Below, in pieces: positions 9,507-54,561 of a DNA stretch of 64,000 bases; the first letter of the stretch is position 1; every line of letters begins with the position of its first letter. Under the pieces are notes generated by a model. That model had not been told where the DNA came from. It made no database searches and was given only the letters and a program-made list of their open reading frames with translations. Source of the stretch: an uncultured Candidatus Saccharibacteria bacterium (GTDB lineage: Bacteria > Patescibacteriota > Minisyncoccia > Phycocordibacterales > JAKFXT01); the NCBI GenBank assembly GCA_964385825.1, contig CAYLPX010000001.1, forward strand, positions 271,959 through 335,958, read 5' to 3'. The position numbers were made by a program, and so were the translations under genes.

Positions 9507-9597
9507 AAGTATAAAAATTAGTATAAAATAGTCTGATCTGCTCTTTCCAGACTTTGCGAGAGCGGTCTTTTTTATTTACCCACAACTGGAGGTAGCC

Positions 9598-10230
9598 ATG
9601 CAGGGAAAAACAACTGCCGGCCAATCGGCTGGCAAGAAGGACATGGGGGCGCTGTTTGCCTCGCTCAAAGCCGGGGACATGTTGATGATTCCCTGCAACG
9701 AGTGTGGCGAGGCCCATACCCACGATTTTGCCGTTCTCAAGACCGAGCAGCACGACGGCGGAATCAAGATCTGGATTTCAAACCCAAACCCCGGAAAGCA
9801 TCATCTGCTCATGCCAGGGGTCAACCCTCTGTCGTGGGAGGCGGACAAGAAGATCATCTTGGACCGGGATGGTGACGAGTTCCCACTCGAAACCGGTGAC
9901 TTCCAGATCGAACGCGAGGCGGCCATGGCGGCTTACCAGAAACACATGGCTCTGCCGAAAATCCGCTGGCCGAAAGCGAAGATCACGAAAGACGACATCA
10001 ATACCGCACTCGAGGAACTCAAGCCGGGAAACATCGTCGATCAGATCCTCAACATGGCGGAGAACGGTGAATTGAAGACCACCGGGGAAATCGCGGCGCT
10101 GACTCTTGCCAATCTCGGCACCGAACCGACGCCAACATTGGTGGCCGCCGTGCTCAGCGTCAGCTTCCTTCTCAAGGAAATCGGGGAAGCGGCTGAGCTT
10201 TCGGTCAGGGTCGTAAGGATCCGCATGTAA
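9598..10230 (+). CDS. Hypothetical protein in GC-rich mini-island A
   Basis: ~60% GC versus ~40% in flanks, GGAGG ribosome-binding site 6 nt upstream, own terminator; CNECGEAH cysteine pair; no family recognised. Confidence 0.55.
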   Translation: MQGKTTAGQSAGKKDMGALFASLKAGDMLMIPCNECGEAHTHDFAVLKTEQHDGGIKIWISNPNPGKHHLLMPGVNPLSWEADKKIILDRDGDEFPLETGDFQIEREAAMAAYQKHMALPKIRWPKAKITKDDINTALEELKPGNIVDQILNMAENGELKTTGEIAALTLANLGTEPTPTLVAAVLSVSFLLKEIGEAAELSVRVVRIRM

Positions 10231-10247
10231 TCTGCCTCACGACGATC

Positions 10248-10275
10248 AAAGCCCGGCGCCAGCCGGGCTTTTTTT
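10248..10275 (+). terminator. Intrinsic terminator (gcccggc-GCCA-gccgggc followed by T7)
   Basis: Perfect GC stem plus T-run. Confidence 0.8.
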
Positions 10276-10285
10276 ATTTCTTATT

Positions 10286-11065
10286 TTATCGTTCTAAATT
10301 CTTTCGCAACACCACAAATGGTTCTTGCCCGTATGGATCCTTCCAGAACTCTACCTGCCAAGGGTGACCGGAATCTTCCACCATTTTTAAAATACGATCA
10401 TGCTGGTAAAAGTCAGCTTCCATATACAGTGTTCCTACTTCAGTAAGTAAATCCCAACCTTTAGTAATAATATAATTATGAAAATATGCCCCACCATCTG
10501 CAGCAAAGAAGGCTAGATGAGGTTCATAGTCCCGCTGTTCCGGATCAAGGTCCTTAAGTGCCTCGGGCGGAATATATGGTGGGTTAGCAACTATGGCATC
10601 ATACTGTCCGGTTAATCCGTCAAAACCATCAGCTGTAAATACTTTCACTCGACTCTTCTCTATATTATTCAGCTCCACACTTTTTTCTATTTGCTCTTTA
10701 AGATCGGGTTGGAGTTCTGATATCTCAACGTAAGAAGTGGGCAAATTCACAAGTAGTGCGAGTCCGATGCAACCTGAGCCAGAAAAGGTGTCCGCGAGGC
10801 GCAGTCGCCTCGCGGACTTTCTTTCAACTTCTTTTAACTCTCCAATTGCCCGCTCCACCCAAAAGGCAGTCTCCTCACGCGGAATCATCGGGTGATGTGA
10901 AAGATCTACCTTAGCCCCCAAAAAATCAACCACACCGAGCACATAAGCAAGCGGTTCTCCACTCTCTAGGCGCGCCACATCCTTTTTAAATTCTGCCCTA
11001 TCCGCATTCCCCCCATACTTAATAAGCTTCACCTGCTCTTTAGCACCCTCTAGATCGTAATACAT
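10286..11065 (-). CDS. prmC: Release-factor glutamine N5-methyltransferase PrmC/HemK
   Basis: NPPY motif (VANPPYIP) and GEPLAYVLG...F motif; start at the internal Met because the upstream part of the ORF covers a terminator hairpin at 11096-11125. Confidence 0.8.
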   Translation of the reverse strand: MYYDLEGAKEQVKLIKYGGNADRAEFKKDVARLESGEPLAYVLGVVDFLGAKVDLSHHPMIPREETAFWVERAIGELKEVERKSARRLRLADTFSGSGCIGLALLVNLPTSYVEISELQPDLKEQIEKSVELNNIEKSRVKVFTADGFDGLTGQYDAIVANPPYIPPEALKDLDPEQRDYEPHLAFFAADGGAYFHNYIITKGWDLLTEVGTLYMEADFYQHDRILKMVEDSGHPWQVEFWKDPYGQEPFVVLRKNLER

Positions 11066-11169
11066 ATTAAAATAGCTTACCGTATTACGGAAACGAAAAA
11101 CAGCCCCAGAGGGGCTGTTTTTCGTGCACTCCATGTGCTTTAAAGAACAAAAAGAACTAAATCAAAAAA

Positions 11170-11946
11170 TTAATTATCAGTCTTGGCTCCGTTATTGCGG
11201 TGCATCTTGCTATGCCCGCGCCCCTCCATCATGCCTGGATTTTTAGTTATAACGATAACCTTAGTCGCTGTAACTGTGGTACCTGCAGCATCCTTTGTTC
11301 CTTCAACTATAACTCGTGCGCCAGACACTACTGCAGTGATAGAAGAAGTTACCCCATCTTTCATAAAGACGGTATTACTTCCGGTCACCACATTAACGAG
11401 CGTTGTTGGAATAGTAGCTACTGTTGTAGTGCTACCCTTCATATGTGGGAGAAACGCATGACTTGCAACTGTAAAGTTTGTCCCAGTTACAGTGCTTACC
11501 GTGCCCATCACTCCCTTTGGAGCCATGATTGATGGCTTACCACCCTCAACTCCACGCGGGCCACCCACACGAATACTAGTAGCTGTAATGGTGGTTCCAT
11601 TAAGTGTTCCTTCAACTACGATCATGTTATTTACCGCTAGATCACTTAGTGCAGCTGCTTTATTTTTACCCTTAAGTATCTTGGCATTAGCCGCATCCAC
11701 GGTGTACGTAGTATTGCTTTTACCAACAATAGTAATACTGGTTCCGTTAATGGCTGTAATTTTGCCAAAAGCCGTAGGAGCTGTGTGCCCTAAGGTGCCC
11801 TTCATGTGCTTCATGAAAGAACCGCCAGTATTTTGAGATGAAGACGAATCTTCTGCTGCAAAAGCAGAGCCAGTAAGCATGGCCGAAATCGCAAGTGTTC
11901 CTGCGAGAATGGCTGTTTTATTTCTAGATAATTTTTTTTGTTTCAT
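11170..11946 (-). CDS. Secreted Thr/Val/Gly-rich protein with tandem internal repeats
   Basis: Signal peptide MKQKKLSRNKTAILAGTLAISAMLTGSAFA; repeated VxVEGT...TTxTAT...V blocks. Confidence 0.55.
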   Translation of the reverse strand: MKQKKLSRNKTAILAGTLAISAMLTGSAFAAEDSSSSQNTGGSFMKHMKGTLGHTAPTAFGKITAINGTSITIVGKSNTTYTVDAANAKILKGKNKAAALSDLAVNNMIVVEGTLNGTTITATSIRVGGPRGVEGGKPSIMAPKGVMGTVSTVTGTNFTVASHAFLPHMKGSTTTVATIPTTLVNVVTGSNTVFMKDGVTSSITAVVSGARVIVEGTKDAAGTTVTATKVIVITKNPGMMEGRGHSKMHRNNGAKTDN

Positions 11947-13902: not shown

Positions 13903-14012
13903 AGGTTTCTTGTATTAAAAATACAAGCTAGTAAACCTGCATTAGCTCCTCGGCTCGGAAATAAAAGAGGTTACTTTTTTATTTCTCTCGCTCTACGTCG
14001 CGAATAAAAAAC

Positions 14013-14043
14013 AGCCCAAGCGCTCCCGCGCTTGGGCTGTTTG
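14013..14043 (-). terminator. Intrinsic terminator of the GC-rich lipoprotein gene (cagcccaagcgc-TCCC-gcgcttgggctg)
   Basis: 12-bp perfect stem; A6 on the plus strand gives a T-run on the minus transcript. Confidence 0.75.
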
Positions 14044-14057
14044 CATCCGGACCACCC

Positions 14058-14657
14058 CTACGTTCGCTTCGGCTGTCGGCTGGAGAGGTAAAGCCAAACG
14101 GCGAAGCCTCCGGCAGCAAAGCCGAAGACGAGAGTGGCCACGGCTAGGCCAAAACCACCGACCATCGCCTTGAATTCAGGAGTGAAAACATCCACCCTAT
14201 TTTCAACCGGCGGAGCCGAGGTGAGGGATGTTGTCATCCCTTGCGGCAGTCGCGCTTCGAGCTTGTACTCATTGCTGGTAGGAGCTCCCTCGCCATCCGC
14301 GCTGTCGCCCGCCTTCGCTCCCTTCGCCGAGGAGCCGCCGCCCACGGTCACGTGGTCAATGAAGAAGGTGTAGTGGGTTTCCCCCACCTTCCTGGCAGCA
14401 CTGGTTTCCCAGCCCGCCTTCGGGGCTTTCTGCACCACCTTTTTCCTCGGGTAGACGTCGACGACGTAAGGCGCCGACAAAACCGAGGCTGCGGGGGCTT
14501 TTGCCACCGGAGGTGGGACGGGCTCACTCGGCTGGAATTCGTACGCCGCCGAAGGTGCCGCACGCCGGGTATCCCCGACGGAACCCATCTTGCTGGGACC
14601 GGCACCGGAACAGGCCGCAAGTATCGCGGCCAAAAAGACCGCCAAAAGACTGCGCAT
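14058..14657 (-). CDS. Lipoprotein with C-terminal TM anchor, GC-rich mini-island B
   Basis: ~62% GC with high GC3; GGAGGA ribosome-binding site 7 nt upstream of MRSLLAVFLAAILAAC (lipobox LAAC); Ala/Pro-rich. Confidence 0.6.
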   Translation of the reverse strand: MRSLLAVFLAAILAACSGAGPSKMGSVGDTRRAAPSAAYEFQPSEPVPPPVAKAPAASVLSAPYVVDVYPRKKVVQKAPKAGWETSAARKVGETHYTFFIDHVTVGGGSSAKGAKAGDSADGEGAPTSNEYKLEARLPQGMTTSLTSAPPVENRVDVFTPEFKAMVGGFGLAVATLVFGFAAGGFAVWLYLSSRQPKRT

Positions 14658-14823
14658 GGTGAATCCTCCAAGCAACCCCTACAAGGATTGCTTACAAAAA
14701 AAGAAAAGGTGTTGTAGCACCGTCTAGAGAATAAATTACCACTAAAATACAGAAAGTCAATGGTCTCTCTCTAAGCTAAAAACCTCGCAGGTAAGCCATT
14801 TTTTTGATATTCTTTGGAGTACT

Positions 14824-19170: not shown

Positions 19171-19211
19171 CAAAAATACTCCACATTTTTGTGCCGAGGA
19201 CCGGGCTCGAA
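19171..19211. repeat. 41-bp direct repeat, copy 1 (tRNA-Phe 3'-terminal 22 nt plus 19 nt of 3' flank)
   Basis: Identical to 19324-19364. Confidence 0.9.
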
Positions 19212-19292: not shown

Positions 19293-19336
19293 CACGTTTG
19301 TCTCCCAGACAAACTCCTCGCGTCAAAAATACTCCA
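19293..19336. repeat. T-arm fragment in opposite orientation (ggcttcgagcccggcac) followed by hairpin tttgtct-ccc-agacaaa
   Basis: Matches the tRNA-Phe T-loop/T-stem in the orientation opposite to the gene; the same fragment-plus-hairpin module is seen at the Arg, Gly and Ser(CGA) loci. Confidence 0.7.
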
Positions 19337-19364
19337 CATTTTTGTGCCGAGGACCGGGCTCGAA
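19324..19364. repeat. 41-bp direct repeat, copy 2 (overlaps the 3' end of the tRNA-Phe gene)
   Basis: Identical to 19171-19211. Confidence 0.9.
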
Positions 19365-23351: not shown

Positions 23352-23493
23352 CTGGCCATACTACAGCAAAAAACGGCTAAAAACAAAGGTAATTTAAGAG
23401 AGGAATACTAGACAAATATGTAAATATATGCTATAATTAAAAAAGGTAAGTTTCGTCCCAACTCTATGGGACTCATTGAAAAAGGAGTTTGCC

Positions 23494-23640
23494 ATGGCCT
23501 TCCTTAACAACCTGCTCAACTCGCCCTGTTTTCTGGAAACTCTCCCCCCCTGGGCAATATTGCCCGTCGTAGGCCTCAGTACCGTAGCAATAATTCTCGC
23601 CTGCCTCAAAATCGAGAATTGCATGAAGCCACGGTGCTGA
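23494..23640 (+). CDS. Small membrane peptide (48 aa), GC-rich mini-island C
   Basis: AAAGGAG ribosome-binding site, GC-rich codons, hydrophobic core, followed by a cccccgcgc-GCCA-gcgcggggg terminator. Confidence 0.4.
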   Translation: MAFLNNLLNSPCFLETLPPWAILPVVGLSTVAIILACLKIENCMKPRC

Positions 23641-23664
23641 TTCACAAATGAAGGGTTAGACGAC

Positions 23665-23696
23665 CCCCCGCGCGCCAGCGCGGGGGTTTTGTTTTC
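23665..23696 (+). terminator. Intrinsic terminator (GC stem with GCCA loop plus T-tract)
   Basis: ccccccgcgcgccagcgcgggggttttgtttt. Confidence 0.75.
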
Positions 23697-23780
23697 TATT
23701 GTTTTTTAAACCATTTTGCTATAGGCTTCTGGTAGAACGGTCCACCTCCACCATAAGCGAGAGTTTACTGAGGGAGCAAA

Positions 23781-24041
23781 ATGAAAACACTTTCGGATGC
23801 ATGGAACACCACACTGGGGATTCTGTACCTCGTGGGATCAATCTTCGTGGGCTTTTGGATCTACGCCCAGTTTTCTTTCGGGCAGATGCCGCTTCCCATG
23901 GCACTACGGATTTTCCTGATCCTCGGGGTTTACGTCACGGCAATGATCAGCTCGATTGACTTTGTGCGTAACAAGCCGCACTTAGCGCTCATCTCTTTGG
24001 TCGTCACCCTCCAGATGCTCTGGCTGGCATGCAAGAGCTGA
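23781..24041 (+). CDS. Small two-TM membrane protein (86 aa), GC-rich mini-island D
   Basis: GAGGGAG ribosome-binding site, GC-rich, own terminator (cccgcgc-GCAA-gcgcggg). Confidence 0.5.
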   Translation: MKTLSDAWNTTLGILYLVGSIFVGFWIYAQFSFGQMPLPMALRIFLILGVYVTAMISSIDFVRNKPHLALISLVVTLQMLWLACKS

Positions 24042-24055
24042 CAGCCAACCACCAC

Positions 24056-24085
24056 CCCGCGCGCAAGCGCGGGACTTTTATTTTC
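24056..24085 (+). terminator. Intrinsic terminator with GNRA (GCAA) loop
   Basis: ccccgcgcgcaagcgcggg followed by a T-rich tract. Confidence 0.75.
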
Positions 24086-24114
24086 TAGTATCTACCCGCC
24101 TAACTTAACCCAAT

Positions 24115-28822: not shown

Positions 28823-28830
28823 AACAATGG

Positions 28831-36532: not shown

Positions 36533-36913
36533 ATGTTTGAAAATTTAGGAACCAGTGATTTTGGAGACAACCCTGAAAAACAAGGGGTTCTTATTCATTC
36601 TGAGGAAAACGAAGGGGGTATAAACCCCGAGGTAATTATGGAGTTAAGTGGTGCTTGGAAAGAATTGCATGCAAAACTTGAGACAATGACTCCTGTCCAA
36701 AAAATGGAAAATCTGAATGAAACACTTGATGAATTAATCAGAATAGCAAGAACTTACATCACTCATGTTAACGGTGGCACTTTTCCAACCGGAGTCTACA
36801 CAACAACGAGAGACATGCTCGCGCACCTTGAAGGAGACGATGAGTCCACACTATTTAATGGACTTACAAAAACCTACGACGAAATACTAAGCCTGCTTGG
36901 CAAGAAAAAATAA
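36533..36913 (+). CDS. Hypothetical acidic protein
   Basis: 126-aa ORF. Confidence 0.4.
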   Translation: MFENLGTSDFGDNPEKQGVLIHSEENEGGINPEVIMELSGAWKELHAKLETMTPVQKMENLNETLDELIRIARTYITHVNGGTFPTGVYTTTRDMLAHLEGDDESTLFNGLTKTYDEILSLLGKKK

Positions 36914-36940
36914 AAAAGACCGCGCACTTCGTGCGCGGTC
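36913..36940 (-). terminator. Intrinsic terminator (gaccgcgcac-TTC-gtgcgcggtc) for the GC-rich gene 36957-37220
   Basis: 10-bp perfect stem; A6 on the plus side gives a T-run on the minus transcript. Confidence 0.75.
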
Positions 36941-36956
36941 ACTCGAGGATGGAAGC

Positions 36957-37220
36957 TCAGCGAATGAGCCTTGGCCTCCTCTTGCTGTCCCCGAACCCCT
37001 TGGCGGGGTCAAACTTGTGCTTGGGGTGGTCGTAGTACGGCTGGTGACTGCCAGCCTGCGCTACGTCACTAACCACCCCATCCTGTGCATGCTGGCGCGC
37101 CATTTTGGCGGCCACATCAACATGCCCCGCATCCTCCGGGTCAAAGGCCACGTAGGCCTGTCCCGGAAAATGGAACGCCTTAGGAGACGCATTCGCCCCC
37201 AACTTCTTTGATTCCCCCAT
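36957..37220 (-). CDS. Hypothetical small protein, GC-rich mini-island F
   Basis: AAGGAGG ribosome-binding site 6 nt upstream of ATG; GC-rich; own terminator. Confidence 0.5.
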   Translation of the reverse strand: MGESKKLGANASPKAFHFPGQAYVAFDPEDAGHVDVAAKMARQHAQDGVVSDVAQAGSHQPYYDHPKHKFDPAKGFGDSKRRPRLIR

Positions 37221-37359
37221 GGATCCCTCCTTGGAAAAGGGGTTAGAAAAAACGAAATGAGCCCTAAGCTCCGAAATATATTATATCATATATATACAAA
37301 AAAGCAAGTCATCACGACCTGCTCGGGAATTCAGAAAATCTCATTTCGCTAAGGTATTT

Positions 37360-37379
37360 GCGGAGACGGAGAGATTTGG
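37360..37379. repeat. Imperfect copy of a tRNA-Ser 3' end (gcggagacggagagatttgg) joined to a GGTCAGGAATATTTT motif
   Basis: 17/19 match to 37412-37430 (tRNA-Ser GGA) and to the Ser(CGA) 3' end; ggtcaggaatatttt also occurs at 4723-4737 as ggtcagggatatttt. Confidence 0.7.
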
Positions 37380-37413
37380 TCAGGAATATTTTAGGATCCC
37401 TCCCATACAGAGC

Positions 37414-37498
37414 GGAGGCGGCGAGATTTGAACTCGCGAAACCTTTCGGTTTACACGCTTTCCAAGCGTGCGCACTAGACCACTATGCGACGCCTCCG
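37414..37498 (-). tRNA. tRNA-Ser (anticodon GGA), long variable arm
   Basis: Acceptor GGAGGCG/CGCCTCC, D stem GCAT/GTGC, anticodon stem CACGC/GCGTG with loop TTGGAAA, variable arm TAAACCGAAAGGTTTC, T arm GCGAG-TTCAAAT-CTCGC. Confidence 0.8.
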
Positions 37499-37526
37499 CT
37501 CTGTAAAGGATTTGAAGAATCGTACT

Positions 37527-37600
37527 ATGCGCACTAGGTCACAGATAATTTTTTGCTAAAAATTTCTGCGACCCCGTCTCGGCTCGTCAGCCTCCGACTC
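37527..37600 (+). repeat. tRNA-associated GGTCAC element, copy E2
   Basis: ggtcacagataattttttgctaaaaatttctgcgaccccgtctcggctcgtcagcctccg is about 85% identical to E1; preceded by a scrambled copy of the tRNA-Ser D-arm region (actatgcgcactag). Confidence 0.7.
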
Positions 37601-37664
37601 TTCGGGTTTTACATTCAACCCGAAGCACTATACGACGTCTCCAGTCTGGCAAAGATAACAGAAA

Positions 37665-37692
37665 ATTAGAAATAAAAGAAGCCGCGCTTACG
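37665..37692 (-). terminator. Intrinsic terminator (gccgcgc-TTAC-gcgcggc) for the GC-rich gene 37716-38141
   Basis: GC stem with A-tract on the plus side. Confidence 0.75.
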
Positions 37693-37715
37693 CGCGGCCT
37701 TACCCTACCCGACTT

Positions 37716-38141
37716 TCAGCCGACAAACTTGCGAAGGTCGACCGTAGTTGCACGAATCGACGGCCTTCGGGAACCAAGCTGCCTCTTCGGCTTCACCTTG
37801 ATGGGAGGTGCCGGAACAGCTTTCCCGTCGAGTAAACTTGCAGAAAGCAGTGACATCGACCCACGCGGGAGCTGATCAAGGAACCGAGCAAACCATGGCT
37901 GCTTCATGTTCCACCGCCGCTCTTCCGCATCGATGATCTCGAGCACGGGATCGCGTGTCCCCAAAGCATCGCTCGTCACTGGGAGTTCGAGCCCCATGCT
38001 GTCCATCGCAACCAGAGGTTCCTCTGGCTCGTCCGCATCAGGAAGAACCACCGACACGTATCCATCCGGGAATCGGCTCGATACCCTGTTCCAGCGCCCG
38101 GTACTGCTGTTCCACACTTGATGCATGGGAATTCCCCCCAA
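37716..38141 (-). CDS. Hypothetical protein, GC-rich mini-island G
   Basis: GC-rich ORF with terminator; start MGGIP or MHQVW. Confidence 0.45.
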   Translation of the reverse strand: MGGIPMHQVWNSSTGRWNRVSSRFPDGYVSVVLPDADEPEEPLVAMDSMGLELPVTSDALGTRDPVLEIIDAEERRWNMKQPWFARFLDQLPRGSMSLLSASLLDGKAVPAPPIKVKPKRQLGSRRPSIRATTVDLRKFVG

Positions 38142-38230
38142 GACAAAGTACGGTTTAATTACGAAAAGATCGGCCTAAGCCTGCCTGATATTTAACCACT
38201 ATCGTGTAAGAAGTCAAAGCTTTTTGTTCA

Positions 38231-39893: not shown

Positions 39894-40436
39894 ATGGAAA
39901 CGACACAAGCACTGAAAGTAGCAACTGTCGTTTTCCCTCTTCGGAAAACGGCAGATGGCACCGAGGAGGTTCTGCTCGGGGAAAAAACTAAGAAAATTGG
40001 TATTGGTTGCCCCACGGGACCAGGTGGCATGGTTAACGAAAACGAAACAATACGACAAGCGGCCGCCCGCGAGACCTTTGAAGAAACCGGCCTCATTGTG
40101 GCTCCAAACAGCCTACGGTATGTTGGGGTGATTACGTTCAATAATTACAAAACCACGGACACCGAGCCATTCCGTATTCGTGTTCACTTTTTCCTCGCCC
40201 CAGAATGGTCCGGTACTGTCATCGAAAGGGACGATGGCTTCAAAAACCTGATCTGGTACGAAGTGAATGATTTGCCTCTCAGTCGCATGATGGCGGCTGA
40301 CCCACACTTCGTACCACGAATGCTTGCTGGTGAGAAAGTAATTGGCTCTGCTCACTATCTCGGCGACCAACGTACGCTCTACCCAAACACCAACGTCTTT
40401 GCTCGCAGTGTCATTGGCGAGTTTGATGTGGAGTAA
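39894..40436 (+). CDS. NUDIX hydrolase
   Basis: Nudix box GGMVNENETIRQAAARETFEETGL. Confidence 0.8.
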   Translation: METTQALKVATVVFPLRKTADGTEEVLLGEKTKKIGIGCPTGPGGMVNENETIRQAAARETFEETGLIVAPNSLRYVGVITFNNYKTTDTEPFRIRVHFFLAPEWSGTVIERDDGFKNLIWYEVNDLPLSRMMAADPHFVPRMLAGEKVIGSAHYLGDQRTLYPNTNVFARSVIGEFDVE

Positions 40437-40483: not shown

Positions 40484-40557
40484 TAATATACGGGGTATTG
40501 CTTTTTAATGGAAATATGTTATAAATTACCCCAGGACCACATGGCCAAGGAGGCCAA

Positions 40558-40741
40558 GATGAAAACTGTTCTGATTTTGGCACTGGTGGGGGTCATCTCC
40601 GCCTGTGCCGAACCGACCATGCGAAGCACGGTCACCCCCGTCACCGGGGAAAAGACCCCGGAGGGAGGAGTGCGGTTCAACCCTGCACAATCAAGCCCTC
40701 CACCCATCGTCGTCATCGGGGAGAAGGAGGCAAGGCGCTAG
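40558..40741 (+). CDS. Small lipoprotein (61 aa), GC-rich mini-island H
   Basis: AAGGAGG ribosome-binding site; MKTVLILALVGVISAC lipobox; Pro-rich tail; perfect terminator 40763-40795. Confidence 0.5.
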
Positions 40742-40762
40742 GGGAAGTAAAACCCTTCTCGC

Positions 40763-40795
40763 AAAAGGCCGATGCGCGTGCGCATCGGCCTTTTT
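40763..40795 (+). terminator. Intrinsic terminator (aggccgatgcgc-GT-gcgcatcggcct plus T5)
   Basis: 12-bp perfect stem. Confidence 0.8.
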
Positions 40796-43014: not shown

Positions 43015-43281
43015 TTGTCCATCCCGAGGGAAAACATGATCCAACCATTTTGGCTTTACCTCCTTACCTTTGCGATTGGGATATGTGTTGCCCATATCGC
43101 AAGCCATTGCGAAAAAATGGCGATGAGTCCCGCCAGAAGAATGTTGGCGGAGGCTCGGGAGAAGAAGTACCCAACTCCCTCGATTTTCTGGCAAATCATG
43201 GCGGCCATTCTGGCTGCATGGGTAATGGACTATGCGGGGGAAATAACCGACTTTTACACACTCGGACCGCCGCCGTACTAA
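43015..43281 (+). CDS. Small membrane protein, GC-rich mini-island I
   Basis: GAGGGA ribosome-binding site; GC-rich; 38-bp terminator module downstream. Confidence 0.45.
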   Translation: MSIPRENMIQPFWLYLLTFAIGICVAHIASHCEKMAMSPARRMLAEAREKKYPTPSIFWQIMAAILAAWVMDYAGEITDFYTLGPPPY

Positions 43282-43287
43282 CCCCGT

Positions 43288-43325
43288 CCCCGCGAAGGCC
43301 GCCTTCGCGGGGCCTTTGTTTGTAT
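43288..43325 (+). terminator. 38-bp terminator module, copy 1 (ccccgcgaagg-CCGC-cttcgcgggg, then cctttgtttgtat)
   Basis: Identical to 43633-43670. Confidence 0.8.
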
Positions 43326-43382
43326 AAATAAAGGTTTTATTTTATTCTTCTAGCTAGAAGTTACCCACACAGGAGACACCTG

Positions 43383-43631
43383 ATGGACACCATTTTCAAT
43401 GTACTCACGGTTACGTGGCATTACACATGCCTCATACTGCCGTGGTGGATGATCGGCCTCGTGCCCATCATTCTCCCTATCCCAAACCCAACCCCAGGAA
43501 GGATCATTCTCGGGGAAAAGTGGTGGCATATCCCGAATGGAAAAGAGCTCCTCCTGGGACTCGTCCGCGGAGTCGCCCTTTTCGCCGGCCTCTGGCTGCT
43601 CATTTGGGTGCTCGCTCAGATCGCCAACTGA
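43383..43631 (+). CDS. Small Trp-rich membrane protein, GC-rich mini-island J
   Basis: AGGAGA ribosome-binding site; GC-rich; identical terminator module downstream. Confidence 0.45.
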   Translation: MDTIFNVLTVTWHYTCLILPWWMIGLVPIILPIPNPTPGRIILGEKWWHIPNGKELLLGLVRGVALFAGLWLLIWVLAQIAN

Positions 43632-43632
43632 C

Positions 43633-43670
43633 CCCCGCGAAGGCCGCCTTCGCGGGGCCTTTGTTTGTAT
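43633..43670 (+). terminator. 38-bp terminator module, copy 2
   Basis: Identical to 43288-43325. Confidence 0.8.
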
Positions 43671-45896: not shown

Positions 45897-47864
45897 ATGA
45901 ATGATCAACAAAACAATTCTGGAACTCCGCACAGTCCAAGGTCTCCTCGTACACCACGAAGCGCCTCACATGGAAGAACACCACACACACGAAGTGCTGC
46001 GGATCACGCTGGCGCTTCACACACTGCGCGTCCACCACGAACAGGAAGCCGTGGAGGGGCCCGCCAAGGTGGGGCCGGTGGACGAGGCCGATCTCGTTCT
46101 CGCTTCCCAGAGCGAGCACCATTTTCTCCACGCGAGGATGCTTCCAAAATCACCACCCCAACCGCCCTCAAGGATATGCTACCAGCACCAGACGCTGATA
46201 CGTTCCGCATTATTCCACTTGGTGGAGTAGAGGAAGTAGGTCGCAACATGACCGTTGTTGAACTTCATAACGATATCTTTGTGCTTGATTGCGGTTTCCA
46301 ATTCACCCCAGAGAGTGATGCTCCTGGTATTGATTACATTCTGCCCAACACCAAATACCTTGAGGATCGCAAAGAACGCATAAAAGGAGTAATCATTACC
46401 CACGGACACTTGGATCACATTGGAGGCATTCCTTACATCATGGACCGTATTGGTAACCCACCTATTTATACCCGCTACCTCACCAGTCTTATGATTTTGA
46501 AGCGTAATGCTGAATTCCCTCACCTCTCACCAAGCAACATTATTGTGGTAGAACCAGGTCAAAAAGTAACTGCGGGAGATACGCCTATTTCCTTCTTCCC
46601 AGTTACTCACTCCATACCGGACGCTATGGGCGTAGTTATTGAAACCAAGCATGGCAACATCGTCTTCACGGGAGACTTAAAACTAGATCACGAGAATGGT
46701 ATACCAACTGAAGAAGAAGCTAAGCGTTGGGACAATCTCAATAAGCAAAAAAATGTGTTCTTCGCTGCAGACTCTACCAACACCGAGCGCCCTGGGTTCT
46801 CTATTACTGAGCGTCAGGTATATGACACCCTAGAAGATATCATTAAAAATACTAAGGGTCGCCTCATCATTGGAACATTCGCTTCGCAGTTCGAACGCAT
46901 GATCAAAATCATCGAAGTTGCAGCTAAGTATAACCGCAAGATTGTAACTGAGGGACGAAGTATTCGCACCAACATTGAAATCGCCAAAGAAGGTGGAATC
47001 CTAAATGTTGATGAAAGTATCTTTATTACTTCAGATCAAATACCGAACTACCCACCAGATCGTATACTCATTCTAGCGACTGGTGCGCAGGGAGAGGAGT
47101 TCGCGGCACTCAATCGTATTGCCAGCAAGAAAGACAAGAATATTTTCTTTACTGAGCAGGACACTGTTGTGCTTTCCTCCTCAGTTATCCCAGGAAACGA
47201 AATTTCTGTGCAGAAACTCAAAGACAATCTCTACCGTCACAATCTAAAAATCATTCACTACCGTGTGTCGGATGTGCACTCTACAGGACATGGAAATGCT
47301 GGGGAACTTGTCTGGATCAACCAAAAGGTTAACGCTAAGTTCTTCATGCCTTCCTATGGTTTCCGCTCTATGACCACTTGCCACGCTCGAGCAGTGATTG
47401 ATGCTGGTTTTCCTAAAGAAAACGTGGTGCTCGCTGACAACGGTACTATTATTGAAATTAAAAACGGCACGGAAATGCAAGTCCTCAAAGAAAAAGCTCC
47501 TTCAACTCCACTTATGGTTGATGGCTTCTCTATTGGAGACATGCAGGAAGTTGTCATCCGAGACCGCCAAACCCTCTCCAAAGATGGTATGTTCGTCATT
47601 ATTGGTTCAGTGAACCCTCGTACAGGAAAACTACGTAAGTCACCTGACATTATTTCCCGCGGCTTCGTATATCTACGAGAATCACAAGAACTTTTGAACC
47701 AAACGAGACTAATCGTTAAGAAAACTATTGAAGATACTACTGTTGGCATGAATCCAATTAATCTTGAGTACACCAAAAATGCGCTCGTTGATAATGTATC
47801 TCGTTTTCTATTCCAAAAAACTAACAAACGTCCGATTGTTATTCCCGTTTTAATCGGCCTATAA
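45897..47864 (+). CDS. rnj: Ribonuclease J (metallo-beta-lactamase / beta-CASP); an alternative start at 46176 gives the canonical N-terminus
   Basis: IIPLGGVEEVGRNMTVVE, HGHLDHIG, beta-CASP motifs; the 93-codon Arg/Ser/Gly-rich 5' extension lies in a 250-bp GC-rich block. Confidence 0.85.
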   Translation: MNDQQNNSGTPHSPRSPRTPRSASHGRTPHTRSAADHAGASHTARPPRTGSRGGARQGGAGGRGRSRSRFPERAPFSPREDASKITTPTALKDMLPAPDADTFRIIPLGGVEEVGRNMTVVELHNDIFVLDCGFQFTPESDAPGIDYILPNTKYLEDRKERIKGVIITHGHLDHIGGIPYIMDRIGNPPIYTRYLTSLMILKRNAEFPHLSPSNIIVVEPGQKVTAGDTPISFFPVTHSIPDAMGVVIETKHGNIVFTGDLKLDHENGIPTEEEAKRWDNLNKQKNVFFAADSTNTERPGFSITERQVYDTLEDIIKNTKGRLIIGTFASQFERMIKIIEVAAKYNRKIVTEGRSIRTNIEIAKEGGILNVDESIFITSDQIPNYPPDRILILATGAQGEEFAALNRIASKKDKNIFFTEQDTVVLSSSVIPGNEISVQKLKDNLYRHNLKIIHYRVSDVHSTGHGNAGELVWINQKVNAKFFMPSYGFRSMTTCHARAVIDAGFPKENVVLADNGTIIEIKNGTEMQVLKEKAPSTPLMVDGFSIGDMQEVVIRDRQTLSKDGMFVIIGSVNPRTGKLRKSPDIISRGFVYLRESQELLNQTRLIVKKTIEDTTVGMNPINLEYTKNALVDNVSRFLFQKTNKRPIVIPVLIGL

Positions 47865-47927: not shown

Positions 47928-49118
47928 ATGAAGCACCTCGTCACACTGACCCAAGAACATATCATGGTTATCCTCCTTTGCCTTGCCAACCTTTTTCTCT
48001 CTTTTCACTACTTTCTCACCATCTATATCAATTCTTCCTTTCTAAGTAAACTCCTGTTTAGTAACCAAAATTTTGTTGTTACATTCCTCTACAGTGTCGC
48101 TTCGCTCGTCACCTGCCTTTTCTTTCTCTTTGCAACACATTTTTTGACACGCCTTGGAGCCTATCGTCTCTCGCTCATTATTACCACTATTGATTTACTA
48201 GCGGTAAATATTTTAAGTCTCACCCACAACCTCGCTCTAGTGCTGCCATTTCTTTTCCTCCACCTCACCAGTATTCCACTTATCTTTTTCCTTTTTGATA
48301 TTTTCCTTGAGCACTTTTCACCCCGCCTACACACCACTGGTTCAACCCGTGGAGTATTCCTCACTGTAGGAAATATCGCCCTAGTGCTTTCTCCTTTTTT
48401 CATCTCACTCCTTGGCATAGCCCAGAATGACTTCTCGTACATTTACAAACTTTCTGGTTTGTTCCTATTCCCACTTCTTTTTATTTTCCTTTTCTCTTTT
48501 AGGAACTTTAAAGATCCCGTGTACCCACACAGCTCCGTACACGGAGAACTTTACCGAATGCTGCGCAATAAGAATATTCGTGGAGCTGTGTTTGCTAATT
48601 TTATTTTGCAGATTTTCTTTTCAGTCATGGTTATCTACTTACCGCTCTATCTCATAGACACCATCGGCTTTTCATGGAGTGAGTTTGGACTGATACTATC
48701 GATCGCACTCTTACCTTTTGCATTATTTGAACTTCCTATCGGTCTTTTAGCGGATAGAAAATATGGGGAACAAGAAATGATGAGTTTGGGGTTCGTCGTA
48801 CTTGCGGTCGCTGTTACTCTTCTTTCTTTTATTAGTGTTAAGAGTTTGGCGATTTTTGCAACAGTGCTCTTTGCAACCCGTGTTGGAGCAGCCCTTATCG
48901 AAACAACTTCTGAAAGCTACTTTTTTAAAAAAACGGAAGATGCCGACGCTGATTTAACTGGTATATTCCGCATGACCCGTCCAGTTTCTTACCTTATAGG
49001 GCCACTTCTGGGACTACCAATTGTTCTATTTTTTTCCTATCATTATCTCTTTATAGCAGTTGGGCTAATCATGCTAACAGGTCTTTATTTCTCTTTTTCT
49101 ATAGAAGATACTCGCTAA
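47928..49118 (+). CDS. MFS-type transporter
   Basis: About 12 TM helices; start moved to the Met downstream of the terminator hairpin. Confidence 0.55.
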   Translation: MKHLVTLTQEHIMVILLCLANLFLSFHYFLTIYINSSFLSKLLFSNQNFVVTFLYSVASLVTCLFFLFATHFLTRLGAYRLSLIITTIDLLAVNILSLTHNLALVLPFLFLHLTSIPLIFFLFDIFLEHFSPRLHTTGSTRGVFLTVGNIALVLSPFFISLLGIAQNDFSYIYKLSGLFLFPLLFIFLFSFRNFKDPVYPHSSVHGELYRMLRNKNIRGAVFANFILQIFFSVMVIYLPLYLIDTIGFSWSEFGLILSIALLPFALFELPIGLLADRKYGEQEMMSLGFVVLAVAVTLLSFISVKSLAIFATVLFATRVGAALIETTSESYFFKKTEDADADLTGIFRMTRPVSYLIGPLLGLPIVLFFSYHYLFIAVGLIMLTGLYFSFSIEDTR

Positions 49119-49948
49119 AGCATAAACTTGCTTTCCTTCTTTTGTATGAGCCCCTCTTGAAGAAGTTCTTTGCATATAGTTTCAGTATCAAACTTAGCAA
49201 CTCCTATTTTTTCTTTAACCTGCTTATATAAAGTTCGTGGCGCTAAAGCACCCCCCAAAAGAAGTTTGGGTACAAGTCCCCTCACTTCCCGCCTTGACCC
49301 CTTAAAGCTTCCTTGCTTTTGATATACCCTACTTTGCTTATTCTTATTTCCAACCGCCTTCTTAAGGTGAGCTCCGAAATCCATCAATAATCCATACCAC
49401 TCCTTAAAACCACTTTTAGGTAAAAGTTTGGTGAGCACCTTCTCAAGCTCCCCTTCAGGTACATTGTGTTTGGATGAAAAAAAGTAATGAATTAAAACCG
49501 TACGAATATTGGTCTCAAGTACCACCATCTTTTCATTGTAGGCAAAAGTGAGTACTGCTGCAGCAGTGTAGTGACCAACCCCCGGCAACGTTCGCAAAGC
49601 TTCATACGTTGAAGGTGTATCACCTTTATATACTTCAACAATCCTCTTTGCTGCTTCATGCAAAAATCGAGCTCTGCGATTATAGCCAAGACCACTCCAA
49701 AGCGTAAGTACATCCTTAAGCGGTGCCCGTGCTAATGCATGTACTGTTTTAAAACGCTTTAAGAAATTTTTATAAAATGGAACTACCCGATCTGCTTGTG
49801 TTTGCTGAAGCATGATTTCAGAAACCAAAATATGATACGGATCATGAGTATCCCTCCATGGAAATGAGCGGTAACCTGTTTTTTTAAATCGTAGCAGCTC
49901 CTTCTTAAAAATCGCTTTCTGTTTTTCTATTTGCATACCTGCAAACAT
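49115..49948 (-). CDS. HhH-GPD base-excision DNA glycosylase (MutY / endonuclease III family)
   Basis: HILVSEIMLQQTQ...GLGYNRRA and an HhH-GPD loop (LPGVGHYTAAAVL). Confidence 0.75.
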   Translation of the reverse strand: MFAGMQIEKQKAIFKKELLRFKKTGYRSFPWRDTHDPYHILVSEIMLQQTQADRVVPFYKNFLKRFKTVHALARAPLKDVLTLWSGLGYNRRARFLHEAAKRIVEVYKGDTPSTYEALRTLPGVGHYTAAAVLTFAYNEKMVVLETNIRTVLIHYFFSSKHNVPEGELEKVLTKLLPKSGFKEWYGLLMDFGAHLKKAVGNKNKQSRVYQKQGSFKGSRREVRGLVPKLLLGGALAPRTLYKQVKEKIGVAKFDTETICKELLQEGLIQKKESKFML

Positions 49949-49950
49949 AA

Positions 49951-49985
49951 AACCCCTCCCTACACTGAGGGAGGGGTTTTATGTT
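49951..49985 (-). terminator. Intrinsic terminator (aaaacccctccc-tacact-gggaggggtttt)
   Basis: 12-bp stem; abuts the annotated start of the glycosylase gene. Confidence 0.7.
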
Positions 49986-50627
49986 TTAGTTTGTAGTAAA
50001 AGTTGCCTCTATGAGACCCTTATCATTTTTTATAGGAGCATCCTCTGAAGTATCAAATCCACGACTTCCAGTATCCTCATAGAGTACAGCATGATACTTT
50101 GCGCCAGCGACAGTTCCGCGTAATAGTTCAACTTCTCCAAGATGAATCCCTGGCTCAAAACGAGCAGCACCAAGCACATTACCGAGTTCTCCATTTTTAT
50201 CCTCATGAATTGCCACCCAACCAGGTACAGAAAGTGTTACCATAGTGACTTCTGCTGTAGTGCCAGCCTTTTGATCGTTAGCAGCAATAGCATTAGTGCC
50301 TGAAACACTTACAGGCTCTTTGCGGACCTTCGGAGTAGGAGCGGTGACTACTTCTTTGGTAACTTCTTCTGTCTTTGCTGTATCTACTCCCATAGTAGCT
50401 GGTGTAGAAGTTGCACTCTCTAGCATTTCTGCACTGTCCATATCTTCTGTAACTACAACCTTTTGATTGTCTCCTTTTGATAACCACATACCAAACGCCC
50501 CAACAACTGCACCAATAAGAAAGGCTGTAACTAGTTTACCCATACCAGTACTAGTTGAAGCCATATTCTTTTTTGCTTCAAGTAATTTTTTCTGATCAGC
50601 GTTGAGGAGATTTTTCGGCGTTTCCAT
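49986..50627 (-). CDS. Hypothetical membrane-anchored protein
   Basis: TM helix then a Thr/Ala-rich linker and a C-terminal domain; start at the internal Met. Confidence 0.4.
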   Translation of the reverse strand: METPKNLLNADQKKLLEAKKNMASTSTGMGKLVTAFLIGAVVGAFGMWLSKGDNQKVVVTEDMDSAEMLESATSTPATMGVDTAKTEEVTKEVVTAPTPKVRKEPVSVSGTNAIAANDQKAGTTAEVTMVTLSVPGWVAIHEDKNGELGNVLGAARFEPGIHLGEVELLRGTVAGAKYHAVLYEDTGSRGFDTSEDAPIKNDKGLIEATFTTN

Positions 50628-51676: not shown

Positions 51677-51771
51677 TTCTCTAAGTATACGCCTTTAAGA
51701 AAACTAATTGAAACTTTGACTTTTCTAAAAAATGCTGCATAATCCACATTAGACAAACCACGGAGAGAATC

Positions 51772-52146
51772 ATGCAAGTTTACAAGGCCTTTGTAGTTGA
51801 AGGTGGGGTGCTGAAGAGCCTTTCGGCGACTGGCCCCCTAGAGCACATCTACAAATTCAGGGAATGGAGTCAATTGCTCCCCTGGCAGGAACAACATGGG
51901 CTTGGCTTCTTTGCCTTCGAAGATCTGGAGGCCGCTCACCATGCGCTCGGAAAGGGGGGTTACATTGCAGTATGCGAAACTACCGAGCTCCTGTCGCGCC
52001 CCAGAGCACTCCTTTCGCAGGAACAACATCCGCCAAAGGATCTATCTGTGGGGCGAATCCTCACATACCTTGACCCTTGCATCGTGGAGATGGTTGAGCC
52101 CGGCACTATTTGGTGCAGGGATATCCGCCCACTCAACTGGGCTTAA
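51772..52146 (+). CDS. Hypothetical protein, GC-rich mini-island K
   Basis: GGAGAG ribosome-binding site; GC-rich; terminator 52147-52205. Confidence 0.45.
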   Translation: MQVYKAFVVEGGVLKSLSATGPLEHIYKFREWSQLLPWQEQHGLGFFAFEDLEAAHHALGKGGYIAVCETTELLSRPRALLSQEQHPPKDLSVGRILTYLDPCIVEMVEPGTIWCRDIRPLNWA

Positions 52147-53231: not shown

Positions 53232-53267
53232 CTACTCAGTATAGTTAAAAACTAATTTTAAAATAAC

Positions 53268-53297
53268 GTTGACCCATCACTACTTCTAAGCTACAGT
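53268..53297 (+). promoter_or_regulatory. Candidate sigma70 promoter (TTGACC, 18-nt spacer, TACAGT) for the GC-rich gene
   Basis: Hexamers upstream of the GAGGAGG ribosome-binding site. Confidence 0.35.
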
Positions 53298-53327
53298 TGG
53301 GGTCGCTTGTTCACTGAGGAGGCCACC

Positions 53328-53765
53328 ATGTGGCAACGCATCAAAAAGGCTTGGCGCGTACTACGTGCGCCCCATGAGCAGACTGCGAAATGGGTGTATG
53401 TCGCCCACCCCATCCGTGGAGACATTGCGGGGAACCTGCAAAAGCTGATAGAGATCCGAAGGGAGATCATTTAGCAAGGGCACATCCCCGTCATCCCCTA
53501 CTTGGCCCCGCTTGAAATCCTCCGCGATTACATCGAGGCGGAGCGGACCCAAGGGATGATGATCAACTTCGCCTACCTTCGCTCCGGTATGGTGGATGAA
53601 CTCTGGCTCTATGGGGATACAATATCTAACGGCATGTGGGCCGAAATCAAAACGGCCATCACGATGGGAATCCGGGTTGTTCCAAAGACCCCAGGCACTC
53701 TGCACTGTTGCCAAGAAGCGCAAGATCGAGGGATCATTGCGCAATTCATGCGAAGTGTCCAGTAA
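53328..53765 (+). pseudogene. GC-rich gene (mini-island L) interrupted by a single in-frame TAG at 53472-53474
   Basis: A 48-codon ORF and a 87-codon ORF share one frame with uniformly high GC3, a GAGGAGG ribosome-binding site, and a terminator at 53775-53808; the conceptual product is 145 aa (VYVAHPIRGD...). Confidence 0.4.
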
Positions 53766-53774
53766 ACCCTTCTT

Positions 53775-53808
53775 CACGAAGCCCCGCTCATGCGGGGCCC
53801 TTTTTTTA
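53775..53808 (+). terminator. Intrinsic terminator (gccccgc-TCAT-gcggggc plus T7)
   Basis: GC stem plus T-run. Confidence 0.8.
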
Positions 53809-54561
53809 CTTTAAAGTAAACGCAGCTTTCACGGTCACCATCACCTCCTTCTTAATATCCCCTGTTGCATATGCCCCGTAATCAGACACTTCAACAGAAT
53901 TAAGTGGGAGTACTTGCACCACACCACTTGAAGCGTTCTTTAATTGACCAACCATCTTACCCGACGCTCCAGCAATCTTTTCAGCCCTGGCTCTAGCATC
54001 CTTAATGGCATCAGAAAGTAATGAAACTCGCAAATCACTTAACTTTGAATAGTAGTATTCGAGTCCCGCCGTGGTGAATACAACTCCATCATCAACTAAA
54101 GTTCTTGTCTGTTTGGCAAGCCCCGTTATCTTATCCACCTCACTTGAATCAACAGTAACCTCTTGGCTCAGCGTATACCTTTTTTCAACATTTGGGTTTG
54201 TATTGTTGCTGTAAGAGTAATCTTCATTCATAGAAATGGCCGCAATGGTTAGTTCCTCATCCTTAACCCCATTCTTGTCCATAAATACTTTAACCAGAGC
54301 CTCATCTTTTGCCATTGCCGCATACCCAGACTTGAGGTTACTAAGAGGTACGGTCCGACTAAAACTTGCCCGCCACTTCACCGTATCCGAAGTTACCTCT
54401 TGTTTAGCAGAACCAGTAACTGAAAGAGAATCATCTAAGAGACGTACTTTATAAAAGGCATATGCGCCAACCGCAGTACTTAGTACAAGTGCAAGCCCAA
54501 TAACTATAGGGGCAAATAGTAATGAGGGAGAAGCACCGAGTTTTATATGTGAATCTTGCAT
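53806..54561 (-). CDS. SIMPL domain protein (DUF541)
   Basis: N-terminal TM; SIMPL-like blocks (YTLSQEVTVDSSEVDK). Confidence 0.7.
   Translation of the reverse strand: MQDSHIKLGASPSLLFAPIVIGLALVLSTAVGAYAFYKVRLLDDSLSVTGSAKQEVTSDTVKWRASFSRTVPLSNLKSGYAAMAKDEALVKVFMDKNGVKDEELTIAAISMNEDYSYSNNTNPNVEKRYTLSQEVTVDSSEVDKITGLAKQTRTLVDDGVVFTTAGLEYYYSKLSDLRVSLLSDAIKDARARAEKIAGASGKMVGQLKNASSGVVQVLPLNSVEVSDYGAYATGDIKKEVMVTVKAAFTLK

Follow-up and report, generated by a model that had tools for sequence, protein, structure and literature searches.

A 64,000-nt stretch of contig CAYLPX010000001.1 (assembly GCA_964385825.1, positions 271,959 to 335,958; hereafter the window) carries a dozen short GC-rich genes, here called islands I1 to I12, dispersed over 44 kb of an AT-rich chromosome. 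Each is led by a Shine–Dalgarno (SD)-like motif of a kind that most surrounding genes lack, and comparison with a close relative, GCA_964541455.1, shows that most islands are old and inherited at fixed sites. With moderate confidence, we read them as long-standing, lineage-specific, autonomous single-gene cassettes that turn over within a Paceibacteria chromosome, rather than as recent imports that have yet to ameliorate. An earlier annotation made from the letters alone (the sequence-only reading) had described them as complete expression units, acquired repeatedly from a donor of high GC, for instance an actinobacterial host.

Composition and expression signals of the islands

The window has a GC content of 43.9% and encodes FtsA/FtsZ, ValRS, LepA, MurJ, a class II ribonucleotide reductase (RNR), GroES/EL, RNase J and pilin-like proteins, along with eight tRNAs and RNase P RNA. 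All 12 segments listed in the sequence-only reading proved to be GC-rich (0.51–0.62). Their open reading frames (ORFs), encoding 48–210 aa, have a GC content at third codon positions (GC3) of 0.59–0.73 in the called frame, compared to 0.392 ± 0.045 (range 0.28–0.51) for native ORFs of 150 aa or more (n = 43). They occur at a density of 12 in 44 kb and make up 9% of the sequence. Codon usage of the islands deviates from that of native genes, with z = 2.8–7.4 against native codon windows of matched length, and at most 0.14% of null windows attain the island value. Rare codons ending in G (TCG, CCG, GCG, CGG, AGG and GGG) are enriched alongside those ending in C, which argues for a GC mutational background rather than translational selection. 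The GC enrichment peaks at the third codon position of one frame and ends at the ORF boundaries; the promoters and leaders of the islands are rich in AT, resemble native ones and are conserved. Nine of the 12 islands lie on the plus strand, where the GC skew is steadily negative and which is presumably the lagging strand, compared to ∼32% of native ORFs (binomial p ∼0.003). In eight or nine cases, island and native neighbor are convergent, with a terminator between the two stops.

In 10 assemblies made from different samples, I1 and I2 run directly into native DNA. Nine of these are 100% identical to the window across the whole overlap (1.9–14.6 kb), and the tenth is 99.9% identical over 2.3 kb. 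Chimeric assembly, a concern of the sequence-only reading, is thereby excluded as the source of the islands. In one JGI assembly, the I1 region is preceded by unrelated genes (Thg1, AAA_33 and a DNA polymerase A fragment; L006 1–2736), with the breakpoint within dedA, the result of either rearrangement in a strain or misassembly at this locus. Rfam gave no match inside the islands, and a permissive threshold over 36900–38200 gave tRNA only.

An SD-like motif of 5 nt lies 5–8 nt before the start codon in all 12 islands. By contrast, 46 of 53 native ORFs of at least 100 aa lack an SD of 4 nt or more (7 have one), in agreement with the difference noted in the sequence-only reading. Native genes show a different feature, a TATAAT-like box 4–14 nt before the ATG. 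It occurs in 10 of 52 native ORFs (upstream of 3072, 7649, 8859, 19914, 36418 and 36533, for example), versus 4.3% of random positions and none of the 12 islands. The closeness of TATAAT to the ATG suggests that many native first genes yield leaderless mRNAs. Similarly, groEL lacks an SD in ∼115 Paceibacteria loci spanning 31–63% GC, whereas two controls from outside the Candidate Phyla Radiation (CPR) have AAGGAGG or an equivalent.

A strong hairpin and T-run lie 3′ of 11 of the 12 islands, I11 being the exception. The hairpins are perfect GC stems of 7–12 bp with loops of 3–6 nt; given the T-tract that follows and their location 3′ of the stop codon, they are predicted to be intrinsic terminators. 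The claim of a hairpin after every island thus stands for all but I11, for which the candidate was an imperfect hairpin within the polIV coding sequence. GNRA loops, thought to typify the set, occur in only about four or five of the hairpins. The islands had also been said to share no similarity, which is not so for the terminators: those of I3, I4 and RNase P RNA are 79–85% alike, and I9 and I10 share an identical 38-nt terminator, T (43288–43325 and 43633–43670). GC-rich terminators also serve native genes, at tRNA-Glu (8806–8836), at RNR (30030–30058) and at 49943–49986. Because native genes and RNase P RNA carry similar hairpins, the style belongs to the genome and is neither island-specific nor imported, and we rejected it as a donor signature.

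Promoter-like –35/–10 pairs are found upstream of I3, I6, I9, I11 and I12, and the boxes of I3, I5, I8 and I12 are conserved in the relative. In order, a unit would consist of a sigma-70-type promoter rich in AT, a leader that in some cases forms a 5′ hairpin, an SD, a short GC-rich ORF and an intrinsic terminator. Each island does hold one short ORF, as originally described, although the ORF at 53328–53765 (I12) is a pseudogene interrupted by TAG. One further unit of this kind had been overlooked, a Nudix gene on the plus strand (39894–40436; GC3 0.51, SD GGAG, own terminator). Membrane proteins or lipoproteins account for only about half of the islands (I2, I3, I4, I8, I9 and I10), the sequence-only reading having counted most as TM peptides, lipoproteins or Pro/Ala-rich secreted proteins. 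Searches of Pfam, PHROGs and PADLOC gave no match for cassette proteins except I12 and Nudix.

Two items reported in the sequence-only reading belong to other features. The block at 45915–46165 (plus strand) encodes the Arg/Pro/Gly/His-rich N-terminus of RNase J (ORF 45897–47864); its in-frame GC3 is only 0.34, and the tail is kept in the relative. The extension as a whole comprises ∼90 aa (45897–46165) rich in Arg, Pro, Gly, Ser and His, and the basic tail in the relative is comparable but diverged in sequence. The hairpin GGCCGCGC-GCAA-GCGCGGCC (28831–28856), taken for an island terminator, actually terminates RNase P RNA (28469–28825, plus strand; Rfam RF00010, 128.9 bits). Two other hairpins deserve mention. 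A perfect 12-bp GC-rich palindrome, GTCCGCGAGGCG-CAGT-CGCCTCGCGGAC (10790–10817), lies within a prmC-like methyltransferase ORF (10286–11134, minus strand); its score is that of a terminator in both orientations. The 19-bp hairpin at 49943–49986, between two minus-strand genes, holds an SD-like GGGAGGGG and the start codon of an EndoIII-like gene (49115–49948), and may serve as both terminator and translational control element.

Position, age and homologues of the islands

The relative GCA_964541455.1 was reached by way of LemA, RNase J and LepA, from proteins clustering with them at 90% identity, and its loci recur in several independent ENA assemblies. Native genes of the two genomes share 58–95% amino-acid identity, with a proportion of synonymous differences (pS) of 0.63–0.83; the pair is at synonymous saturation. 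Seven of the 10 islands that could be compared (I2, I4, I5, I7, I8, I10 and I12) occupy the same sites in the relative, with their orientation kept, as does the Nudix gene. GC3 of the relative's islands is 0.65–0.72 (0.62–0.72 with Nudix), versus 0.31–0.45 for native genes in both genomes. Foreign DNA is expected to drift to the base composition of its host, and genes are expected to use host translation signals. Yet after more than one substitution per synonymous site, GC3 has not come near ∼0.39 in either lineage, which argues that GC-richness and SD are maintained and are not relics. Moreover, lineage-specific islands are no GC-richer than shared ones (0.59–0.65 versus 0.64–0.71), the opposite of what decay after import predicts. 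The sequence-only reading had taken shared positions with normal codon adaptation as the mark of ancient resident genes; the positions are indeed shared, but codon usage is unadapted.

Expression signals have been retained as well, including SD motifs, –10 boxes and terminator hairpins. The SD motif is kept in eight orthologous pairs, though weakened in the relative's copies of I8 and Nudix, and the terminator hairpins persist with both arms changed in the I5 stem and in T. For the cassettes, the ratio of nonsynonymous to synonymous substitution (dN/dS) is 0.11–0.41. These ratios are rough because dS is saturated, but lipoboxes and transmembrane (TM) segments are clearly kept. Cassettes evolve faster than core genes.

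Among the shared islands, I2 (14009–14675, minus strand) has an SD, an ORF at 14058–14657 for a 199-aa lipoprotein with a C-terminal TM segment (GC3 0.69) and a terminator at 14009–14042. Its orthologue, between ValRS and TsaD, is 27–30% identical (GC3 0.68) and retains the lipobox, TM anchor, leader and hairpin. I4 (23701–24089, plus strand) consists of a leader, SD, ORF 23781–24041 (86 aa, three TM segments, GC3 0.71) and terminator 24056–24073; the orthologue at the same site is 56% identical, with GC3 of 0.66. I5 (29290–29714, plus strand), near tRNA-Arg, has an SD, ORF 29311–29670 (119 aa, GC3 0.68) and terminator 29687–29714, with A/T runs on both sides. Its orthologue (66% identity, GC3 0.67) has the same SD and a hairpin with a compensatory change. 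The Nudix orthologue is 55% identical (GC3 0.62). I8 (40540–40794, plus strand) has the SD AAGGAGG, ORF 40559–40741 for a 60-aa lipoprotein (GC3 0.70) and a terminator (40763–40794) located between the convergent stops of I8 and groEL; in its orthologue (50% identity, GC3 0.72), the lipobox is kept. I12 (53269–53798, plus strand) has a promoter-like pair at 53269–53297, the SD GAGGAGG and a terminator at 53781–53798. Its ORF (53328–53765), a DUF7768 pseudogene with an in-frame TAG at 53472–53474, matches Pfam DUF7768 and phrog_355 (nucleoside 2-deoxyribosyltransferase). The orthologue at the same site in the relative is intact (135 aa, 57% identity, GC3 0.65), and I12 is decaying.

I7 (37679–38200, minus strand) comprises a leader (38127–38200), SD GGGGGG, ORF 37716–38126 (136 aa, GC3 0.64; 38126 is the better start position) and terminator 37679–37700. 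It differs from the other shared islands in its low divergence, with 89% amino-acid identity and pS of 0.42 versus 0.63–0.83 for native genes. The whole of 37530–38200 (∼670 bp: a conserved non-coding block, the terminator, I7 and its leader) is 85–100% identical between the genomes at the nucleotide level, and across ∼94 nt the leader has a single mismatch. The flanking htpX and tRNA are at ordinary divergence. That the I7 segment is far less diverged than its surroundings suggests recent exchange between the lineages.

Three of the 10 islands are missing from the relative or replaced. I3 (23409–23700, plus strand) has a promoter (23409–23437), leader hairpin, SD, ORF 23494–23640 for a 48-aa TM peptide and terminator 23665–23686. 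In the relative, the same promoter, leader, SD and terminator surround an unrelated 181-aa TM gene. The two ORFs show no similarity in DNA or protein, and I3 is not an obvious deletion remnant; pairing in the leader hairpin is maintained by a compensatory change involving both arms. I9 (43015–43325, plus strand; promoter-like TTGACA-17-TATAAA, SD, ORF 43036–43281 for 81 aa with TM, GC3 0.59, terminator T at 43288–43325; 43036 is the better start position) has no homologue in the relative. I11 (51716–52146, plus strand; promoter-like 51716–51743, SD GGAGA, ORF 51772–52146 for 124 aa, GC3 0.59) has no terminator of its own, and its stop overlaps that of polIV. It too is absent from the relative, where the HAD–polIV gap is 20 bp.

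Conversely, the relative has cassettes of its own, of 181, 100 and 168 aa, each with an SD and a GC hairpin (GC3 0.59–0.69; 0.59–0.63 for the 100- and 168-aa cassettes). The 168-aa gene occupies the slot between GroES and SecG, where each lineage has two identical ∼38-nt terminator copies. In the window, the pair brackets I10 (43360–43670, plus strand; SD, ORF 43383–43631 for 82 aa with two to three TM segments, GC3 0.70, second T copy at 43633–43670), whose orthologue is 54% identical with GC3 of 0.71; in the relative, the pair brackets the 168-aa gene. Between lineages, the terminator differs by paired stem changes. Identity within each lineage combined with difference between lineages points to duplication or conversion of the local terminator upon addition of a cassette. 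The relative also carries insertions of native GC content that the window lacks, namely queA between SIMPL and ROK, and genes for 127 and 648 aa between LemA and HtpX (L187 18243–19307; L183 10555–12925), so ordinary genes turn over at these junctions too.

More distant loci were collected by GroEL-anchored scans of GTDB genomes and JGI metagenomes; these gave only distant relatives (identity of 77% or less), which served for synteny rather than dating. The best matches (73% in GTDB genomes, 77% in metagenomes) place the window among Paceibacteria (Parcubacteria, CPR). Gene order near groEL is conserved across ∼120 loci (HAD, EndoIII, MFS, RNase J, SBP, GroES, GroEL, LemA, HtpX) and continues with O-antigen ligase, MurJ and LepA. 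The MurJ–LepA gap is –2 to 50 bp in three distant relatives versus 913 bp here, where it holds I3 and I4. In 24 of 82 Paceibacteria loci, the GroEL–LemA gap is <160 bp, too short for Nudix, versus 1068 bp here with Nudix and I8. The SBP–GroES gap is typically 250–500 bp elsewhere versus 1198 bp here, with I9 and I10. Since the units sit at junctions of a class-wide gene order, they would have been added to a Paceibacteria backbone that is otherwise conserved. These junctions also differ among many lineages and are therefore hotspots; in those lineages, the inserted DNA usually shows no GC enrichment. SD-led GC-rich ORFs were not enriched over control motifs in 1.7 Mb of Paceibacteria loci. Strictly filtered units number ∼1 per 94 kb in those loci (including some false positives inside groEL) versus 1 per 11 kb in the window. 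In other Paceibacteria, the GroEL–LemA hotspot can hold a Pro-rich protein with a C-terminus that by eye resembles PEP-CTERM, and a protein whose repeats by eye resemble RTX-type GGxGxD (L014 11729–12337; L057 11832–12356). PEP-CTERM and RTX-type motifs are typical of Gram-negative bacteria.

Few homologues of the cassette proteins were found. The exact island proteins form clusters of one to three members. I6 (36918–37312, minus strand; promoter-like 37285–37312, SD AAGGAGGG, ORF 36957–37220 for 87 aa, GC3 0.70, terminator 36918–36940) is found as the exact protein on nine contigs; its terminator lies just beyond the stop of a convergent native gene (36533–36913). I11 is a strict ORFan, with no homologue other than itself among 5.8 billion protein clusters, and homologues of I12 are at 34–49% identity or less. 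I1 (9585–10271, plus strand; SD GGAGG, ORF 9598–10230 for 210 aa, GC3 0.73, terminator 10248–10271) belongs to a family of ∼210-aa proteins with 16 representatives among 1.84 billion, at 24–33% identity; a structural model of I1 gave no informative structural match. Each family copy examined has an SD-like motif. In contigs long enough to judge, most neighboring genes lack one (L171, L172, L175/L176), L174 being mixed. One copy (L172 3016–3657, Logan SRR17233806) has 67% GC, GC3 of 0.87 and an SD within a 40% GC contig whose other genes have 35–43% GC and no SD, which is the same island phenomenon in an unrelated sample. Another copy matches its 54% GC genome, which derives from the JGI sample series (33000453xx) that also yielded the window organism. 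A tblastn search with the concatenated islands against 50,697 phage records and 72,556 plasmids gave no match, and scans of IMG/VR with I12, I1 and I2 found no relatives. Nothing points to Actinobacteria as the donor.

Origin, maintenance and rival explanations

As we see them, the cassettes would have come by horizontal transfer from an SD-using, GC-richer gene pool, the most plausible route, and would be best described as a new variety of accessory-gene islets. The age of the islands and the conservation of their SD motifs argue that the SD functions here; cassettes would then be translated by SD-dependent initiation, and core genes would be leaderless or SD-independent. GC-richness would be actively maintained rather than a fading signature of import. 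Candidate causes are recurrent exchange of alleles or cargo at the slots, possibly with GC-biased gene conversion, which has been proposed for bacteria (PMC4450053), selection on the mRNAs, or a reservoir in a GC-richer replicon. Cassettes are gained, lost or replaced within the same slots, as at I3, at I9 and I11 and at the relative's 100- and 168-aa genes.

Several points weigh against this account. It is drawn from sequence comparison, and the dating comparison covers one close relative and 10 of the 12 islands (all but I1 and I6). Shared positions could in principle reflect parallel recombinational import instead of vertical descent. Neither a recombinase nor a consensus for attachment sites nor a circular intermediate was seen, and the mechanism of turnover is therefore inferred. 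Leaders adjoining the island ORFs are not GC-rich, and to our knowledge the effects of GC-biased conversion reported in bacteria are far smaller than the difference between 0.39 and 0.70. The 3′ end of 16S rRNA was searched for in the window and all fetched loci, and no rRNA is present there; a genome without an anti-SD would need another explanation of SD conservation. The anti-SD motif has been found in only 48% of Parcubacteria (PMC9297842).

A more ambitious version of the cassette account is possible but doubtful. It posits two expression regimes, an AT-rich core that is leaderless or SD-independent and a GC-rich, SD-dependent, monocistronic cassette regulon, held apart by selection and exchanged between lineages via the leader/hairpin slots. 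The regimes might be kept by a ribosome sub-population, by conditional exposure of the anti-SD as in Bacteroidia or by a need for very stable mRNAs; in its stronger form, the cassette signals would match those of a partner organism. Bacteroidia offer a parallel. Their genomes are SD-blind, with the anti-SD sequestered, yet keep a small number of functional SD-led genes, among them rpsU with a strong SD (PMC7797042, PMC9976891). There as here, the genome overall ignores the SD while a small set of genes has a strong, conserved one, implying a separate initiation regime. However, the SD-led set of Bacteroidia is ribosomal and autoregulatory, whereas here it consists of accessory GC-rich cassette genes.

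The view from which this work began, that complete units were imported recently and independently from a high-GC source, an actinobacterial host for example, and have not ameliorated, now seems rather unlikely. It explains why GC3 and SD are foreign to the backbone, why the islands are insertions relative to distant relatives and why I9, I11 and I3 are missing from the close one; the I1-family gene at 67% GC in a 40% GC contig fits it, as does a cassette-like unit elsewhere in Paceibacteria that by eye ends in a PEP-CTERM-like motif. The idea of repeated acquisition survives in part, in that the islands are additions carrying signals the backbone lacks. Their recency does not, given that the relative, although dS is saturated, has seven of 10 in the same places with GC3 unchanged and that lineage-specific islands are not GC-richer. 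Nor is import of complete units supported, the promoters, leaders and terminators being native-like and conserved. The homologues found are confined to contigs in which most other genes have no SD, I11 is an ORFan, and phage, plasmid and viral collections gave no match, all of which argues against a high-GC donor. About equally unlikely is the reverse, that native, fast-evolving envelope or accessory genes rose in GC in place through GC-biased conversion (PMC4450053) or selection for stable mRNAs. High and stable GC3 in both lineages, fast protein evolution, the signal of recent exchange at I7, the conserved I3 leader hairpin and the strong terminators would all be expected. Still, most other Paceibacteria lack the genes at these junctions, restriction of the SD to this gene class is left unexplained, and GC enrichment halts at ORF boundaries. 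The size of the shift is also far above the bacterial conversion effects we know of.

It is quite improbable that the islands are remnants of phages or integrative elements, each deleted down to one moron-like gene. I12, a pseudogene, matches phrog_355 and DUF7768, partial tRNA duplicates resembling attachment sites occur at tRNA-Phe, tRNA-Ser(CGA) and tRNA-Ser(GGA), and the promoter–ORF–terminator layout resembles phage morons. But most islands lie between core genes rather than at tRNAs, the single-gene state is conserved in the relative, and neither the 50,697 phage records nor IMG/VR gave a match. No other phage or integrase remnants were noticed: in line with the first description, no integrase or transposase was noticed among window ORFs of at least 100 aa or among the Pfam families of L001–L010 genes, no full Pfam scan of the window being made. 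As for artefact, whether chimeric assembly or spurious ORFs over structured non-coding RNAs, the chance is negligible. GC-rich patches in AT-rich genomes are often RNA genes, and one such patch here is RNase P RNA. Against this, nine of 10 independent assemblies are identical across 1.9–14.6 kb, and the same loci exist in a relative itself assembled several times. Enrichment is strongest at the third position of one frame, proteins are conserved with dN/dS <1 and intact lipoboxes and TM segments, I1 and I12 belong to protein families, and Rfam finds nothing in the islands.

Among known systems, the cassettes resemble horizontally acquired genomic islets and ORFans of atypical GC, including islands and single transferred genes reported for Patescibacteria (PMC12455944), in being lineage-specific additions at backbone junctions with atypical composition, small hypothetical proteins, some tRNA neighbors and turnover. 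When Patescibacteria acquire genes horizontally, the donors are mostly other Patescibacteria (PMC12455944). The units described here differ in their single-gene size, very high density, lack of a noticed integrase and GC-richness in an AT-rich genome, as well as in the absence of amelioration across saturation and the use of an initiation signal that host genes do not use. Of the features that define genomic islands, deviating composition was found, mobility genes were not noticed in the genes surveyed, and no donor lineage was identified, the homologues elsewhere being distant. At the orthologous sites the picture is mixed: many distant Paceibacteria have junctions too tight for the genes, but the close relative has seven of 10 islands in place. 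In integron cassettes, too, each unit has a single short ORF (in many cases an ORFan, or a gene for a small protein that is secreted or membrane-bound), its own ribosome-binding site and a 3′ hairpin, with tandem units bearing related 3′ hairpins (as in I3/I4 and I9/I10) and cargo swapped between conserved flanks. However, the window showed neither intI/attI nor an array, and its units lie scattered over 44 kb. Integron cassettes are promoterless, whereas islands carry promoter-like pairs, each unit having its own promoter. The island hairpins lack attC architecture and a common GTTRRRY core, a GTTRRRY-like motif being seen by eye only at I3. Phage morons are similar in being autonomous promoter–ORF–terminator units of distinct composition, but the islands lie between core genes (ftsZ, valS, lepA, murJ, groEL, dedA, prmC, tsaD, polIV) at sites that are fixed in the relative.

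If the cassette account is true, a reduced, AT-rich, SD-less CPR genome keeps a dense set of SD-led GC-rich genes beyond saturation time while the cassettes are swapped. Atypical GC would then be an unreliable clock for horizontal transfer in these organisms, and a second, SD-dependent regime of translation may exist in a group of which half the members reportedly lack the anti-SD. The fast-evolving small lipoproteins and membrane peptides would be candidate surface determinants of partner-cell interaction. Paired genomes with defined slots would also provide a test bed for what maintains bacterial GC content.

Repeats near tRNA genes

The sequence-only reading had correctly placed islands beside tRNAs: I5 is near tRNA-Arg, and I6 and I7 flank tRNA-Ser. 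Direct repeats are limited to the duplicated terminators of I9 and I10 and to tRNA fragments that do not bound islands. For tRNA-Phe, the 3′ end is found as a 41-nt exact repeat 153 bp from the gene (19171–19211 and 19324–19364). Fragments like the 3′ end of tRNA-Ser(CGA) lie near both tRNA-Ser genes (8302–8325 and 8478–8501; 37359–37382), and the one at 37359–37382 is closer to the relative's tRNA-Ser than to the adjacent tRNA of the window. These partial tRNA copies resemble the attachment-site scars that integrative elements, since deleted almost entirely, would have left behind.

Upstream of tRNA-Ser(GGA) lies a non-coding block of ∼150 nt (37530–37680). Its identity to the relative, ∼93%, greatly exceeds that of coding DNA. 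Rfam has no match for it, and within it an insert splits a truncated copy of the tRNA-Ser 5′ end. Related copies lie at 4682–4712, 4781–4811, 4789–4848 and 8313–8343, and paralogues occur near tRNA-Val, at a tandem 99-bp repeat. The block could be a small RNA of a new kind or the end of a mobile element.

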